Of a DNA stretch of 4,587 nucleotides, positions 953 through 4,587 are shown piece by piece. How positions within the stretch are numbered: the stretch's first letter is position 1; each line of letters begins with the position of its first letter. The stretch comes from a virus (lineage: Duplodnaviria; Heunggongvirae; Uroviricota; Caudoviricetes), in IMG/VR virus record IMGVR_UViG_2778261227_000009, positions 1 through 4,587 of that record. The stretch is one strand, 5' to 3'. The position numbers and the translations under genes were made by a program. The notes beneath the pieces were generated by a model. It saw only the letters and a list, made by a program, of their open reading frames with translations, was not told the DNA's origin and did not search any database.

Positions 953-1168
953 TTACTCTCCCCGTGCAGCCTTACGCTTGTCTTCTCTGATTTTGAAGTA
1001 CAGATTTGTCAGATAAGTCAGGAAGCCCAGAACCAGACTCCCCAGTACACCAATCGCAGCCCACTGTGAAGGACTGACCTGATCAAGCCACTGTAAAAAC
1101 CAGTAGCCAGCACTACCTGCTGAGGTGCCATAGGCGACACCCGTTGTTAACTTATCCATGGATTTCAT
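953..1168 (-). CDS. essQ: Class II holin (pinholin) of the phage 21 S21 type, 71 aa, with a dual-start motif (Met1-Lys-Ser-Met4).
   Basis: The translation [71 protein letters not shown] has two transmembrane segments and a charged C-terminus, and closely resembles S21. The ATG at 1166-1168 is preceded by GAGGTGGGG about 2 nt upstream. The longer track ORF (to 1231) starts at GTG and would run through the upstream terminator hairpin, so it is rejected. The symbol is given by analogy to K-12 Qin EssQ. Confidence 0.85.
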
Positions 1169-1203
1169 AACCCCACCTCGCAGATGCGGGTGCTGTGTAA
1201 TGG

Positions 1204-1229
1204 AAATAAAAAGGCCACCTGACGTGGCC
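1204..1229 (-). terminator. Rho-independent terminator between the methyltransferase gene and the holin gene.
   Basis: The minus-strand RNA would be GGCCAC-GUCAG-GUGGCC followed by UUUUUAUUUCC. It begins 6 nt after the methyltransferase stop codon (1236-1238) and lies about 35 nt upstream of the holin start. Confidence 0.6.
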
Positions 1230-1235
1230 ACCAGA

Positions 1236-2288
1236 TTATTTCCCCACCAGCTCGTTTATCTCTTTCACTGTCTGATTAAACCGCTCTGACTCAAGCTCAA
1301 CACCTAAGGCCCGACGCCCCAGCGCCATTGCTGCTTTTATTGTGGAACCGGATCCCATAAAGAAATCAGCAACCAGATCACCAGGTCGACTACTGGCATT
1401 GATTATTTGCCGGAGCATATCCGCCGGTTTCTCGCACGGATGTTTACCCGGGTAGAACTGAACGGGCTTATGCGTCCAGACATCGGTATAAGGCACGGAG
1501 ACTGATACGGAGAAATAGCGCCGGAGAGATTTAAACTCATCCAGCAATTCAGAATATTTGCGATTCAGTGAATCATAAGATGCCACCAGCTGGTGGTGTG
1601 GTTGTTCCAGTTGTTGTTCCTGAAACTTCTCTGCCGCTATACGGGAAAACAGTGCCTGTAACTTCCGATAGTCAGCCTCATTCGGCAACTGCCACTGACT
1701 GGCACCAAACCAGTGGGAAACCATATTTTTCTTACCTGTGGCTTCGGCAATTTGTTTTGCCGTTATACCCAGTTCGGCACGAGCATCCCTGAAATACGAT
1801 ATCAGCGGTGCCATTATGTGCTGTTTGAGTTCCCTTTCTTTTGCTGCATAGCCGTCACTTTTGCCGCGATATGGCCCCTGGTAATGTTCAGCAAACAGAA
1901 CGCGCTCTGTGGCAGGAAAATATGCGCGCAGACTTTCTTTATTACACCCATTCCAACGTCCGGACGGCTTCGCCCAGATGATATGGTTAAGCACGTTGAA
2001 ACGTTCACGCATCATGATCTCAATATCAGATGCCAGGCGATGCCCACAGAACAGGTAAAGGCTTCCGGCAGGTTTTAACACCCGCCAGAACTGGGCCAGA
2101 CAGTGGTCCAGCCACTTAAGGTAATCTTCGTCCCCTTTCCACTGATTGTCCCAGCCGTTGGGCTTCACTTTGAAGTACGGCGGATCGGTAACTATCAGGT
2201 CAATGGAATCATCAGGCAGGGACTGAATAAAATGCAGGCAATCAGCGTTGATTAAATCAACACTGTTTATTTTTACAGTATTTTTCAT
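1236..2288 (-). CDS. Solitary DNA methyltransferase of the beta-class amino-methyltransferase family (N6-adenine or N4-cytosine; N6_N4_Mtase family).
   Basis: The 350-aa protein has motif IV DPPY at residues 35-38 (nt 2175-2186, codons checked by hand), HPCEKP at residues 283-288, and the SAM-binding motif I FFMGSGST at residues 309-316 (nt 1341-1364). Motif IV lying N-terminal to motif I defines the beta class. Between the motifs is a long insert of roughly residues 140-270 containing an HTH-like stretch ([14 protein letters not shown]), which is the presumed target-recognition region. No restriction endonuclease partner is visible in the window. Confidence 0.9.
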
Positions 2289-2437
2289 GGATCAGTAAGC
2301 GTAACTCTGGTAGGCTCACTCTGCTTTTGCGCTAAAGCAGTGGGCCATGGTTCGCTTGTGACCAGTAAGCATGAGCGAATGGCTGGCAGGTGCTACCAAC
2401 ACCCACCAGCCGCCCATTTTCACAAATTAAAAGCCCT

Positions 2438-2632
2438 TCATTGCTGAAGGCGTCTGTAACAGCCGAACTGGTTATCTGCCAGCCCCGCCATAACCAGCTG
2501 GGTCAGTATTAACTGACAGCGTTCGCGTGAAAGGTATGTGTTTTGTGCTATCTCCCCGACTGTTGCCGGTTTGCCGTTTAATTCATTAAAAACAACTTTC
2601 GCCGTTTCTGTCATATCTTGCGGTTTTAGCAT
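2438..2632 (-). CDS. Small (64 aa) winged-helix DNA-binding protein resembling the PapI/FaeA family of regulators.
   Basis: The ORF starts at ATG 2630-2632 with AAGGT about 9 nt upstream. The segment GKPATVGEIAQNTYLSRERCQLILTQLVMAGLA resembles the PapI/FaeA core (G-K-x-A-x-x-x-E-I-A ... Y ... R ... L ... AG) as I recall it. No HMM search was run. Confidence 0.5.
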   Translation of the reverse strand: MLKPQDMTETAKVVFNELNGKPATVGEIAQNTYLSRERCQLILTQLVMAGLADNQFGCYRRLQQ

Positions 2633-2753: not shown

Positions 2754-2777
2754 ATAAAAAAACCGCGAGAACGCGGT
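2754..2777 (-). terminator. Rho-independent terminator downstream of the 176-aa ORF.
   Basis: The minus-strand RNA would be ACCGCG-UUCU-CGCGGU followed by UUUUUUAUAAAUU: a 6-bp GC-rich stem, a 4-nt loop and a U6 tract. It lies 35 nt after the ORF stop at 2813-2815. Confidence 0.6.
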
Positions 2778-3372: not shown

Positions 3373-3392
3373 AACCCGCTCGGCGGCGGGTT
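3373..3392 (-). terminator. GC-rich stem-loop (AACCCGC / GCGGGTT, 7-bp stem) between the candidate promoter and the 176-aa ORF. It may be a tR'-like terminator or a 5'-leader hairpin.
   Basis: A perfect 7-bp inverted repeat is visible in the sequence. On the minus strand it is followed by AAATTATTTTTT, so the U-tract is not directly adjacent to the stem and terminator strength is uncertain. Confidence 0.3.
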
Positions 3393-3497: not shown

Positions 3498-4250
3498 TTA
3501 TCTCGTCACCTTTCTCAATTGTGCTTCAGCGTAAGCTTCTTCCTGCCAGCACTTTGTAACCAGTTTATCAATGACATCTGCATACCCCTTGTACCACTGA
3601 TAATCCGTCAGGTTCGGTACCAGTTTCTGGACATGATGCCGCGCCAGTGTGGTCGGTAAACGGCTAAACCGATTTCCATTACAACGCCCACAAATCTTAT
3701 AAACCGGCGCGCCATGAAGCCGGGTTCTTTTTTCATCCAGGACAATACCTTTACCCTTACACCCTCTGCACGCTGTGCTGACTTCTCCCTTACCATGACA
3801 ATGCTGACATAGTTCCTTCACCCACTCTTCCTTGATAACAGATTCCCCGCTTCTGGAGTGTTTTACCACCTCGCGCAATACATCATGAAATCCAGTACCA
3901 GCACAATGCTCACAGCGAGCCTTACTTGCCGCAGACCTGGAATAATCAGCAAATGCAAAATTCACAAGGTAAGGGATGATCTGTAACCGGGTTTCTTCAC
4001 TCAATTTATTCAATGTCGGGTTATCCAGTGCCATCGCGTAATTGAGCAGACCTTCAATCGCAAACTGAGGATCCTGAACACCAACTTTTGCCAGAAATAA
4101 GGCAAAACCCAGTGGTGCTTTCGACTGCACCATCCCCTGCGCAGCCATCACATCCGTAATCGTTAAACCACCAGAGCCTGTCGCCGGTGCGTCATCGCTC
4201 AATTTTGGAGATTTTGGGGAGTAATATTTTGGTAAGGCTTCAAGGTTCAT
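3498..4250 (-). CDS. quuQ: Late-gene antiterminator Q (QuuQ-like, about 250 aa) with four CxxCxGxG zinc-finger-like repeats.
   Basis: The protein is Cys/His-rich with four DnaJ-like repeats (CEHCAGTG, CQHCHGKG, CRGCKGKG, CGRCNGNR). It sits immediately upstream of the cargo and lysis genes, as Q does in lambdoid phages. The track ORF (3498..4292) begins with a GTG codon and would overlap the upstream gene by 29 nt. The first ATG, at 4248-4250 (MNLEALPKYY...), is preceded by GTGGAGAACGAGC as a Shine-Dalgarno-like sequence and leaves a 13-nt gap to the upstream stop. The symbol is given by analogy to K-12 Qin. Confidence 0.7.
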   Translation of the reverse strand: MNLEALPKYYSPKSPKLSDDAPATGSGGLTITDVMAAQGMVQSKAPLGFALFLAKVGVQDPQFAIEGLLNYAMALDNPTLNKLSEETRLQIIPYLVNFAFADYSRSAASKARCEHCAGTGFHDVLREVVKHSRSGESVIKEEWVKELCQHCHGKGEVSTACRGCKGKGIVLDEKRTRLHGAPVYKICGRCNGNRFSRLPTTLARHHVQKLVPNLTDYQWYKGYADVIDKLVTKCWQEEAYAEAQLRKVTR

Positions 4251-4263
4251 GCTCGTTCTCCAC

Positions 4264-4587
4264 TTACGCCAGTACGCCAATTGCCAGCGCACGATCGATA
4301 AAACGAAATATCAGCTCCAGCTGAGAGCCATACTTCTCTTCAAATGCCACGGTATCCGCATGCAGCTCGTCGTGATGCTTTCTGCACAAAGGCAACACAA
4401 AGAGGTCATGCGCTTTTGTACCCATTCCCCCCTGACCGTGGCCTATCAGGTGGTGGGGATCATCAGCAGGTTTTCCACAACATGCACACGGCTGTGTCTT
4501 AACCCAGCGTGTGTACTTTTCATTAACCCAGCGGCGACGTTTTGGGCGTAACATAAAAGACTCCGGCGACTCCGGATCCACTTTCAG
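4264..4587 (-). CDS. C-terminal part of a phage nin-region protein with an HNH-like Cys/His motif (DUF968 / YdfU-like). The 5' end is truncated by the window edge.
   Basis: The reading frame is open to the window edge, with no stop between 4582 and 4587, and the apparent first codon at 4579-4581 is GTG, so the gene most likely starts upstream of the window. The translation contains PCACCGKPADDPHHLIGHGQGGMGTKAHD...LPLCRKHHDELH, a zinc-ribbon/HNH-like motif. The stop is at 4264-4266, 13 nt upstream of the Q start. Naming the family DUF968 is from memory and has moderate reliability. Confidence 0.65.
   Translation of the reverse strand: MKVDPESPESFMLRPKRRRWVNEKYTRWVKTQPCACCGKPADDPHHLIGHGQGGMGTKAHDLFVLPLCRKHHDELHADTVAFEEKYGSQLELIFRFIDRALAIGVLA

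Follow-up and report, generated by a model that had tools for sequence, protein, structure and literature searches.

Two questions are raised by this locus, which lies in a window of 4,587 nucleotides from a caudoviricete virus record: what is a solitary DNA methyltransferase doing between the antiterminator gene and the lysis genes of a lambdoid prophage, and how would an enzyme of this kind be kept under control? The reading that we favour, with a probability of about 0.8, is that this is a prophage-borne, non-specific methyltransferase of the M.EcoGI/M.EcoGII type that would act on any adenine in essentially any context, would be produced late in a Q-dependent manner and would confer broad protection from restriction on the progeny DNA. 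How the gene is controlled is a matter for a more tentative proposal, which involves a structured element upstream of its start.

A methyltransferase of the M.EcoGI/M.EcoGII family

The open reading frame listing places the gene at positions 1236..2288 on the minus strand, with an ATG start and a product of 350 aa. Inspection of the sequence revealed an in-frame TGA two codons 5' of the ATG, so the frame cannot be extended. The product matches Pfam N6_N4_Mtase (PF01555) with E=1.3e-42 and 146.7 bits (cutoff 26.7), over residues 29-341 and over positions 1-220 of the 221 in the profile. The catalytic motif IV, DPPY (residues 35-38, 2175..2186), is N-terminal, the target-recognition domain (TRD) is central and the AdoMet-binding motif I, FFMGSGST (FxGxG; residues 309-316, 1341..1364), is C-terminal and preceded by a conserved HPCEKP motif (residues 283-288, 1425..1442; all on the minus strand), which is the order of the beta class. 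All three motifs are invariant among 43 aligned orthologues of 76-93% identity that include the window protein, as seen at D35, P36, P37 and Y38, at H283, P284, C285, E286 and K287, and at F309, F310, G312, S313, G314 and S315. By motifs and homology, the gene product is an intact beta-class N6/N4 DNA methyltransferase, as a preliminary description of this DNA had stated with the same frame and motifs, and the inactivating substitutions in motif IV or motif I for which that description had suggested looking are absent from the orthologues.

The closest characterised homologues are the N6-adenine methyltransferases M.EcoGI and M.EcoGII of E. coli O104:H4 C227-11 (Fang et al., 2012; Murray et al., 2018, PMC5778455). 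The window enzyme is 81% identical over 349 aa to M.EcoGII, whose sequence was machine-read from Supplementary Table S1 of PMC11551740, and 82% identical (285/348, no gaps) to the 349-aa methyltransferase of an E. coli O104:H4 genome. The latter is probably M.EcoGI, since it is itself 94% identical to the machine-read M.EcoGII sequence. The likeness extends to the length (349-350 aa, without internal gaps), to DPPY, FxGxG and a predicted helix-turn-helix (HTH) TRD with charged linkers, and to a position in a lambdoid prophage directly downstream of Q. The differences amount to about 65 substitutions, about 16 of them in the TRD (about 20% of its residues), and the window allele is known from its sequence alone. 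Relative to the O104:H4 enzyme, identity is 79.5% in the TRD and 72% and 68% in the two linkers. Genes encoding proteins of 99-100% identity are present in mEp460 (gp53), SfV (orf48) and Ayreon ('putative DNA methylase'), where they are known from annotation only; a megablast search matched 422 phage records, and about every second complete E. coli genome carries a member of the family. The methyltransferase, judged by these identities, is thus a member of a known prophage family and in itself adds nothing new, being another allele of a characterised family that is annotated in several sequenced phages.

The window enzyme is also 89% identical to Anc291 and 71% identical to SUPREM (Anc284), which, rather than natural genes, are synthetic reconstructions of ancestors of the M.EcoGII clade; both are dimeric, have been shown to methylate DNA and RNA and act on RNA largely without sequence preference (PMC11551740). 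EcoGII is sold as a reagent and widely used for chromatin footprinting, and a natural variant so close to Anc291, the more active reconstructed ancestor, has modest practical value.

The central part of the protein had been described as a large insert carrying an HTH-like stretch. The HTH itself is upheld, at about residues 176-195 (1704-1763, minus strand). However, the region around it is no insert: it is the normal TRD of the family, which the published model of M.EcoGII (residues 160-237) depicts as a bundle of four helices that includes an HTH and is connected through charged linkers (PMC11551740), and which by the limits of that model occupies residues 160-237 here (1578..1811, minus strand). 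Sequence matches in the PDB (M.RsrI, M.MboIIA, CcrM and others) are confined to about residues 9-154 and 269-347, and the middle region therefore has no solved relative by sequence. M.RsrI, M1.MboII, CcrM and M.PvuII share the catalytic Rossmann core and the motif order, with E=1e-6 to 1e-24 at both ends, but they lack any sequence match over the central 120-150 residues or so and recognise defined sites, mostly as members of restriction-modification (R-M) pairs or, in CcrM, for cell-cycle control. An AlphaFold2 model built from the 43 orthologues shows the expected helices (146-173, 177-184, 190-194 and 204-223), although with only moderate pLDDT: the mean is 65, and residues 99-159 and 251-285 fall below 50. 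This poor quality is attributable to the shallow alignment, which spans 76-93% identity. The model was accordingly kept out of fold searches, and the published model of the homologue was used for the domain architecture.

Few substitutions can suffice to alter the specificity of a methyltransferase. The specificity had been held to be unreadable from the sequence, yet the window enzyme is colinear with M.EcoGI and M.EcoGII through the TRD and both linkers, and these two enzymes have been shown experimentally to methylate all A residues in any context. Together with the identity to the tested ancestor Anc291, this argues for the same relaxed specificity here. Homologues in O111 STEC strains, at about 93% similarity, have also been classed as 'nonspecific' in the literature, and those strains yielded no further methylated motif. 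The non-specific activity, the silence in lysogens and the toxicity upon constitutive expression all come from experiments on homologues.

Position in the late operon and expected role

The gene order in the window is DUF968, Q, terminator, a moron, terminator, a 64-aa ORF, the methyltransferase, terminator, S21 holin, DUF1327 and lysozyme. Pfam matches to Q, the holin, DUF1327 and the lysozyme around the gene mark a lambdoid prophage setting and bear out the phage origin that had been assumed. The antiterminator Q (3498..4250, minus strand; PF03589, E=2.3e-53) probably starts at Met15 of the listed 264-aa ORF, which yields the 250 aa annotated in mEp460 and SfV. Three intrinsic terminators are predicted between Q and the methyltransferase: a tR'-like one downstream of Q (3373..3392), at a place where terminators are annotated in SfV and Ayreon, a strong hairpin after the 176-aa moron ORF that was found by a terminator scan (2762..2777), and a weak hairpin where the 64-aa ORF ends (2435..2450) with six pairs, three of them G-C, followed by GCTTTTAATT. 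A further terminator-like hairpin with a T-run follows right after the methyltransferase stop codon (1213..1229; all on the minus strand) and corresponds to an annotated terminator in SfV and Ayreon. A generic promoter scan of the window called no promoter of its own for the methyltransferase.

The order of Q, methyltransferase and lysis genes recurs in mEp460, SfV, Ayreon, ETEC H10407 and most of 160 related loci, in which Q, the small ORF and lysis genes are the neighbours of the gene. The copy in ETEC H10407, at 5091400-5092452, is 99% identical; in all, related loci number 211 in genomes and more than 588 in viruses. The SfV, mEp460 and Ayreon genes share a location flanked by Q and the lysis genes, a small ORF on the upstream side and a terminator after the gene. 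In mEp460 and Ayreon, however, the small ORF is of the other allelic type, with about 51% identity, and the moron that follows Q is a different one. In the O104:H4 genome a 65-aa ORF and the upstream element are likewise present, but the gene is followed by tRNA genes, as in Stx phages, whereas in the window the holin follows directly and a tRNA scan found none.

The lysogen does not express M.EcoGI or M.EcoGII, and the O111 homologues are likewise silent. Constitutive expression of M.EcoGI and M.EcoGII does harm, and many restriction enzymes are blocked by them; the literature gives no mechanism for their silence. Because the window gene lies between Q and the holin and behind three terminators, its expression is most likely restricted to the late phase of lytic growth, a Q dependence to which the gene order and the predicted terminators point. 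The gene would stay silent in the lysogen, with transcription reaching it only when RNA polymerase that has been modified by Q continues from pR' through the terminators in the late lytic phase. The enzyme, as a homodimer, would bind nucleic acid through its HTH-containing TRD and charged linkers without reading the sequence, so that replicating and packaged progeny DNA would become heavily methylated and thereby withstand the many restriction enzymes of types I, II and III whose action m6A blocks. It would thus act as a single-gene anti-restriction device that is independent of specificity. Such protection need not be universal, since DNA rich in m6A could also become more vulnerable to methylation-dependent (type IV) nucleases. 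Of the two roles that the preliminary description had offered, protection from host restriction is the most likely one, while it is unlikely that the enzyme modulates host genes in the lysogen, since the homologues are silent there and the gene sits behind three terminators.

It is conceivable that the enzyme is instead a sequence-specific orphan that, like CcrM, Dam or M.PflMI, regulates host or prophage genes epigenetically in the lysogen. Site specificity is usual among beta-class enzymes with HTH-type TRDs, M.PflMI belongs to the same REBASE sequence cluster and is site-specific (PMC11551740), and about a fifth of the TRD residues differ from M.EcoGI and M.EcoGII. However, the window enzyme is 81-82% identical to and colinear with two non-specific enzymes and 89% identical to a tested ancestor, it retains the charged linker that M.PflMI lacks (PMC11551740), its gene is placed in a late operon behind three terminators, with no predicted promoter of its own, and the homologues are silent in lysogens; we thus regard this scenario as unlikely. 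Less likely still is that RNA is the main substrate in vivo, with m6A being added to transcripts of the phage or the host at a late stage of infection and methylation of DNA being secondary. M.EcoGII and the reconstructed ancestors do methylate single-stranded RNA and DNA:RNA hybrids in vitro, but the initial velocities entered for M.EcoGII in Supplementary Table S3 (V0 11.12 versus 0.12) make it about 90-fold faster on DNA. Moreover, SUPREM carries E179, which favours RNA methylation and whose replacement by Q lowered RNA methylation 3.4-fold, whereas the window enzyme has Q179, and the location of the gene just ahead of the lysis and packaging genes fits modification of virion DNA.

That the gene is the modification half of an R-M or other defence system, with the 176-aa ORF or the DUF968/HNH protein as its partner, is highly improbable. 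The methyltransferase does match the PADLOC Type II methyltransferase model PDLC03265 (E=9e-153), DUF968 bears an HNH-like nuclease signature (PF16784, E=5e-7) and the 176-aa ORF has no known function, with no family match in Pfam, PHROGs, NCBIfam or PADLOC and no PDB relative even at E<=10. The 176-aa ORF was nevertheless rejected as a restriction partner, as it accompanies the methyltransferase in only 5 of 80 viral loci and in none of 80 genome loci. It was matched in a single phage record, at 49% identity, and its composition is foreign, with a GC content of 36-37% against 47-51% for the methyltransferase; it has its own terminator (2777-2762), after which the 64-aa ORF follows, in line with the earlier account of its composition and separation. 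DUF968 belongs to the early-right region ahead of Q, at a variable distance, and a non-specific methylase is no usual cognate for a site-specific nuclease. Apart from the early-region DUF968/HNH protein, no ORF of the window has an endonuclease family match in Pfam, PHROGs, NCBIfam or PADLOC. In a type II R-M system a cognate endonuclease gene adjoins the methyltransferase gene; none does so here, and the methyltransferase is solitary, as first described.

A winged-helix gene and a structured element upstream

Two conserved features precede the methyltransferase. The 64-aa ORF (2438..2632, minus strand; phrog_331, E=9e-33) is on the same strand and ends 100-200 nt before the methyltransferase start, and it is shared by the majority of the viral loci and by at least 53 of the 80 genome loci. 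Its AlphaFold2 model (pLDDT 85.9) has an H1-S1-H2-H3-wing topology. The gene had been called PapI-like, but neither Pfam (E<=10) nor the best 50 Foldseek matches include PapI or FaeA. At that threshold, Pfam yields only TrmB, DprA_WH, MarR_2 and Rrf2, all under their cutoffs, and the top 50 Foldseek matches are winged-helix domains of O-methyltransferases, IclR, MarR/OhrR and SelB; the product is a generic winged-helix protein. Since two divergent alleles of this ORF (92-100% or about 51% identity) precede near-identical methyltransferases, a mosaic junction lies close by.

Between this ORF and the methyltransferase lies a conserved, structured and apparently undescribed element (2318..2428), a candidate cis-antisense RNA of about 100 nt on the plus strand. 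It comprises a 5' hairpin (about 2323-2340), a three-way junction with a closing helix (2340-2345/2412-2417), a 10-bp helix (2350-2359/2371-2380) and a hairpin (2381-2411), and a U-run (2417-2420). The covariance model R1 scores 116 bits at the window element and finds it in 58 loci, all of them methyltransferase loci from many Enterobacterales genera with the element directly upstream of the gene; sequence similarity detects it in about half of complete E. coli genomes. In the R1 alignment, base pairing is kept in 98.5% of cells, and 12 of the 26 pairs have changed on both sides. An extended -10-like motif, TGnTAGGCT (2308..2316, plus strand), is conserved just ahead of the element, the TG in 43 of 46 sequences and hexamer positions 1, 2 and 6 (T, A and T) in all 46, and could serve as the promoter of the candidate RNA, although the generic promoter scan made no call there. 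Rfam has no match at E<=1 on either strand of the whole window; with lax filters on 181 nt the best match reached 16 bits, against a gathering score of 55. The conserved 15-mers of the element do not occur in the full-text literature that was searched.

Several known or conceivable identities were set aside. AgvB, AsxR and EcOnc03 are 51-60 nt long, unrelated in sequence and located downstream of moron coding sequences, the Pas sRNAs are limited to Escherichia and Shigella and located elsewhere, and StxS is the pR' leader RNA. A leader peptide joined to the methyltransferase start by an overlapping ATGA was also rejected: some loci do have a 40-55-aa ORF ending at the methyltransferase start, but indels disrupt that frame elsewhere, including in the window. 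A pseudoknot between the hairpin loop UGGUAG and a downstream CUACCA can form in the window, yet the other sequences show no covariation between the loop and its partner.

On which strand the element is read decides what it may be. Our first reading, a structured 5' UTR of the methyltransferase mRNA, was set aside, as A.C mismatches outnumber G.U pairs on that strand and the reverse-strand consensus is far better; with it went a riboswitch-like alternation between UGGGC:GCCCA pairing and an extended hairpin. Calculated over identical columns, the plus strand gives a consensus energy of -31.0 kcal/mol and the methyltransferase strand one of -16.6 kcal/mol; taken singly, 41 of the 46 sequences also fold better on the plus strand. 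The 10-bp helix is 98.8-98.9% paired on the opposite strand only, because many of its pairs are G.U there and A.C mismatches on the methyltransferase strand, and these wobble pairs point to a candidate antisense RNA. The chance that the element is something else, either a cis-acting 5' UTR structure for processing or translational control or simply a recombination linker at a module boundary, is nonetheless only just short of even. The element is always found next to the methyltransferase start and on one side of it, which is what a 5' UTR would do, one outer pair (A2 columns 105:140) occurs as GC, AU and GU, which fits the sense strand better, and the candidate RNA is a prediction from sequence alone for which the generic scan called no promoter. 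The two 64-aa alleles before near-identical methyltransferases place a mosaic junction nearby. Compensatory changes speak against a linker that acts purely at the DNA level. The folding energies and the strand-restricted helix favour the antisense RNA over a 5' UTR.

If the element is an antisense RNA, the winged-helix protein, the opposite-strand RNA and the methyltransferase may form a three-part cassette. In it, the RNA, possibly aided by the winged-helix protein, would prevent production of the toxic enzyme in the lysogen or set the time of its lytic expression, and the RNA would constitute a new family. We consider this possible rather than probable. Antisense RNAs are known to control toxic and R-M genes, as in the hok/sok type I toxin-antitoxin pair and through the intragenic reverse promoters and antisense RNA of EcoRI. 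These systems and the present one would have in common a harmful gene with a conserved structured RNA from the opposite strand in its 5' region; the predicted RNA differs in that it does not overlap the start codon, and it has no sequence or Rfam similarity to known antisense RNAs. What could matter about this locus is therefore the control of a promiscuous, harmful enzyme, for which the terminators, the winged-helix partner and the covarying opposite-strand element make up a concrete and testable hypothesis. Should it be true, the cassette would be akin to type I toxin-antitoxin systems or to antisense-regulated R-M genes, and M.EcoGII-type methyltransferase genes would be part of a conserved cassette instead of lone genes.

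The element itself points to a candidate new RNA family across many Enterobacterales genera. In the shorter leaders of Photorhabdus and Xenorhabdus loci, where R1 gave no detection, the long hairpin and its 5' flank are, by eye, the only parts in common.

Kinship and specificity of the methyltransferase

The 350-aa methyltransferase is, with a probability of about 0.8, a non-specific enzyme of the M.EcoGII type. Its ORF (1236-2288, minus strand) and motif order (DPPY at residues 35-38, HPCEKP at 283-288, FFMGSGST at 309-316) are exactly as the preliminary description had them. Pfam N6_N4_Mtase matches residues 29-341 (E=1.3e-42), and an in-frame stop lies two codons 5' of the ATG. Inactivating substitutions in orthologues, named beforehand as one refuting observation, were not found, the motif residues being invariant in 43/43. 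The interpretation offered with that description holds in part. The methyltransferase had been credited with a large insert carrying a helix-turn-helix (HTH); the HTH is present, but the insert is not unusual. PDB relatives (M.RsrI, M.MboIIA, CcrM and others) align only to the two ends of the protein (about 9-154 and 269-347), which is the normal beta-class layout with the target-recognition domain (TRD) between motif IV and motif I. In the published AlphaFold model of M.EcoGII, the Rossmann core comprises residues 1-134 and 260-349, and the TRD is a four-helix bundle with an HTH (residues 160-237) and long charged linkers, the latter missing from the site-specific relative M.PflMI (PMC11551740). 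Since that model puts an HTH-bearing TRD there, the insert is taken as the ordinary TRD of the family. Our AlphaFold model of the methyltransferase has helices at 146-173, 177-184, 190-194, 204-223 and 231-255, at low confidence (mean pLDDT 65).

M.EcoGII, encoded by a prophage of E. coli O104:H4, is a beta-class enzyme of 349 aa that methylates adenine in any context in dsDNA and ssDNA, and RNA more weakly; it is unexpressed in the lysogen and harmful under constitutive expression, and its paralogue M.EcoGI has 333/349 residues in common with it (PMC5778455). The window enzyme is 81% identical over the full length to M.EcoGII, in a copy machine-read from Supplementary Table S1 of PMC11551740 with a few obvious reading errors. 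An O104:H4 locus (L164) was brought in to make the comparison independent of this copy; its 349-aa methyltransferase is probably M.EcoGI, since it matches the machine-read M.EcoGII at 94% identity. The L164 and window enzymes align gap-free at 82% identity (285/348); the N-terminal core stands at 89%, the C-terminal core at 80%, the TRD at 79.5% and the two linkers at 72% and 68%. Anc291, a reconstructed ancestor of the M.EcoGII clade, is nearer to the window enzyme than M.EcoGII (89% identity); made and tested, it outperformed M.EcoGII 2.4-fold on DNA and methylated RNA with no discernible motif (PMC11551740). The specificity, previously held to be unreadable from the sequence, can thus be inferred from kinship with M.EcoGI and M.EcoGII as any adenine.

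It seems unlikely that the enzyme is instead a site-specific epigenetic regulator. The RNA activity of M.EcoGII and Anc291 would suit a primarily RNA-directed enzyme, which appears improbable as well, RNA being the weaker substrate of M.EcoGII. Nor is half of a hidden restriction-modification pair a likely reading. One neighbour to consider is the AT-rich 176-aa ORF (3343-2813, minus strand), which has no match in Pfam, NCBIfam, PADLOC or PDB, is assigned to phrog_8867, has a lone, distant phage relative (49% identity) and stands beside the methyltransferase in 5/80 viral loci and 0/80 genome loci. The enzyme therefore stays solitary, as first described, and the differing composition noted for the 176-aa ORF also holds (36-37% GC, foreign). 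This ORF is an unrelated moron, an accessory prophage gene, sitting between tR' and its own terminator in the slot that toxin genes occupy in Stx phages.

The methyltransferase is of an already known kind and its gene is already annotated, because a 99-100% identical protein is called DNA methylase or methyltransferase in mEp460 (gp53), SfV (orf48) and Ayreon, the family is widespread, and methylome papers already give such homologues the label "nonspecific", reporting no further methylated motif that could be assigned to them in those strains. Its 90% protein cluster (P0001) has 4060 member sequences. The gene was found by megablast in 1266/5426 complete E. coli genomes, and the family by the more sensitive blastn in 2741/5426, at 4634 places. 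Relatives of 63-93% identity lie in prophage late regions across Enterobacterales, in genera including Salmonella, Klebsiella, Citrobacter, Enterobacter, Providencia, Morganella, Yersinia, Photorhabdus and Xenorhabdus. In three protein entries (P0011, P0052, P0119) the methyltransferase (99-100% identity, 80-85% query coverage) is fused to N-terminal domains that have no relation to it (PF03245; PF26078/PF26079; PF06316/PF13505); such entries probably reflect errors in gene calling or assembly, not genuine fusions.

Gene order and probable late transcription

The window spans the region of an E. coli lambdoid (pro)phage that governs late-gene expression and lysis; all of its genes are on the minus strand. 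Transcription order begins with a DUF968/HNH protein of which the window edge leaves the C-terminal part (4581-4264; PF16784, an HNH-like nuclease signature, E=5e-7), and antiterminator Q (probably 4250-3498; PF03589, E=2e-53), followed by a predicted tR'-like terminator hairpin (3392-3373). After the 176-aa ORF come a second predicted terminator hairpin (2777-2762), a 64-aa ORF (2632-2438), a spacer of 149 nt, the methyltransferase ORF and a third predicted hairpin (1229-1213); an S21-type holin, a DUF1327 protein and a lysozyme are last. The DUF968 ORF (4264-4581) overlaps the listed GTG start of Q (ORF 3498-4292) by 29 nt, and the ATG at 4250 is the counterpart of the annotated Q start in relatives. 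The GTG start of the listed 92-aa holin ORF (953-1231, minus strand) falls within the methyltransferase terminator; the true start is probably 1168, which gives a 71-aa protein (MKSMDKL...) with Met1 and Met4 as dual starts, as is typical of phage 21 S, and the mEp460 annotation is of the long form. The holin directly follows the methyltransferase in the window, unlike in the O104:H4 prophage (L164:5231-5480, FDAARGOS_348), where tRNA-Ile, tRNA-Arg and tRNA-Arg follow and, further on, a SASA-family esterase gene; that is a Stx-phage layout, with no stx genes annotated there.

Q and three intrinsic-terminator-like hairpins precede the methyltransferase gene. The window has 16 terminator-like sites where 4.9 are expected, a 3-fold excess, and a generic scan of it predicted no promoter on the methyltransferase strand. 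In lambda, pR' transcripts end at tR' in the lysogen and only Q-modified polymerase reads through all terminators. By analogy, pR' transcription would be halted at tR' in the lysogen, leaving the methyltransferase off, and Q-modified polymerase would pass all terminators so that the gene is transcribed late. Such read-through fits the reported lysogen silence and toxicity of M.EcoGI/M.EcoGII. Late expression would lead to massive adenine methylation of progeny DNA, a shield against restriction independent of its specificity, as proposed by Murray et al. (PMC5778455). Anti-restriction is the most likely role, although we hold the late-expression and anti-restriction steps somewhat less firmly than the enzyme's type.

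The winged-helix gene and the structured element upstream

Homologues of the 64-aa ORF occur in most viral loci and at least 53/80 genome loci, on the methyltransferase strand and ending 100-200 nt 5' of its start. They extend to Photorhabdus, Xenorhabdus, Providencia and Morganella, genera in which methyltransferase identity is down to 63-66%. The ORF is a conserved partner of the methyltransferase across Enterobacterales, not an incidental neighbour. The alleles that precede near-identical methyltransferases fall into two widely diverged types, with 92-100% or about 51% identity to the window copy, and there is therefore a mosaic junction between the two genes. The ORF belongs to phrog_331 and is named "TrmB family transcriptional regulator" by NCBI. 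AlphaFold models it confidently as a canonical winged helix (pLDDT 85.9; H1-S1-H2-H3-wing). The PapI-like label suggested earlier finds no support: Pfam (sub-threshold TrmB, DprA_WH and MarR_2 only) and Foldseek (best E-value 9e-4; O-methyltransferase N-terminal domains, IclR, MarR/OhrR, RNA-binding SelB domains) yield generic winged-helix matches.

Between the two genes (2289-2437) lies a conserved structured element (core 2318-2428, plus strand). The spacer keeps 84-92% nucleotide identity in genera whose methyltransferases are 77-83% identical, thus outconserving coding sequence, and the element is kept even where the small ORF is missing. It is non-coding, because indels break every frame. 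A profile search found it in 143/165 sequences, always immediately next to the methyltransferase start, and turned up a single extra copy, a partial one; its frequency in E. coli genomes (2690) is similar to that of the methyltransferase family (2741). Its covariance model, R1, recovers it in 58 loci (43-128 bits), 57 of them beyond the window (e.g. L096:3862-3971, L164:3993-4102).

Covariation is clear in the alignment. On the methyltransferase strand, one helix has 24 A.C mismatches versus 5 G.U, and over identical columns the consensus fold reaches -31.0 kcal/mol on the plus strand versus -16.6 on the methyltransferase strand, 41/46 sequences folding better on the former; our reading therefore moved to the strand opposite the methyltransferase. 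There, 97.7% of cells are paired and 13/29 pairs show double-sided changes, values reached by 0/500 column shuffles, and sliding the partner by 1-3 columns drops pairing to 32-59%. The R1 alignment, which is fitted to the model, shows 98.5% pairing and 12/26 covarying pairs. On the plus strand the fold combines a 5' hairpin (about 2323-2340) with a three-way junction and has a short U-run (2417-2420). The junction is made up of a closing helix (GUGGGC/GCCCAU), a 10-bp helix and a long hairpin (2381-2411). The 10-bp helix is 98.9% paired, with G.U, G-C and A-U interchanging (pair 88:106: UG n=36, CG n=7, UA n=3).

Upstream of the element, TGnTAGGCT (2308-2316, plus strand) looks like an extended -10 promoter, with its TG kept in 43/46 sequences and the hexamer's T, A and T in 46/46; the generic scan made no call there. 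The element is thus a candidate cis-antisense RNA to the methyltransferase leader, with complementarity over about -35 to -132; it could silence or time a toxic methyltransferase. It is possible that it acts on the sense strand, where it folds less stably, or on both. No Rfam entry matched in a covariance-model search, its conserved 15-mers were not found in the full-text literature searched, and the known prophage sRNAs compared are different. In Photorhabdus and Xenorhabdus the leader is shorter and different: these loci (L136-L163) retain the small winged-helix ORF, and about 80-100 nt 5' of the methyltransferase start they have a covarying hairpin with GUGAAAUGG as its flank; the rest of the element is absent. 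With a U-run after it on the methyltransferase strand, this hairpin resembles the small ORF's terminator. That the winged-helix ORF and the antisense-strand element form an upstream cassette with the methyltransferase is a tentative proposal, which we regard as somewhat doubtful; the pair is the one thing here worth follow-up, the methyltransferase itself being of low interest.

The methyltransferase start region (2286-2300, minus strand) has no Shine-Dalgarno sequence. The start carries YUGAUCUAUG, a motif kept from E. coli through to Providencia and Yersinia that includes a Dam site (GATC); its UGAUC is the complement of GAUCA near the 16S rRNA 3' end. On the opposite strand, the same motif is where the -35 of the candidate antisense promoter would fall.
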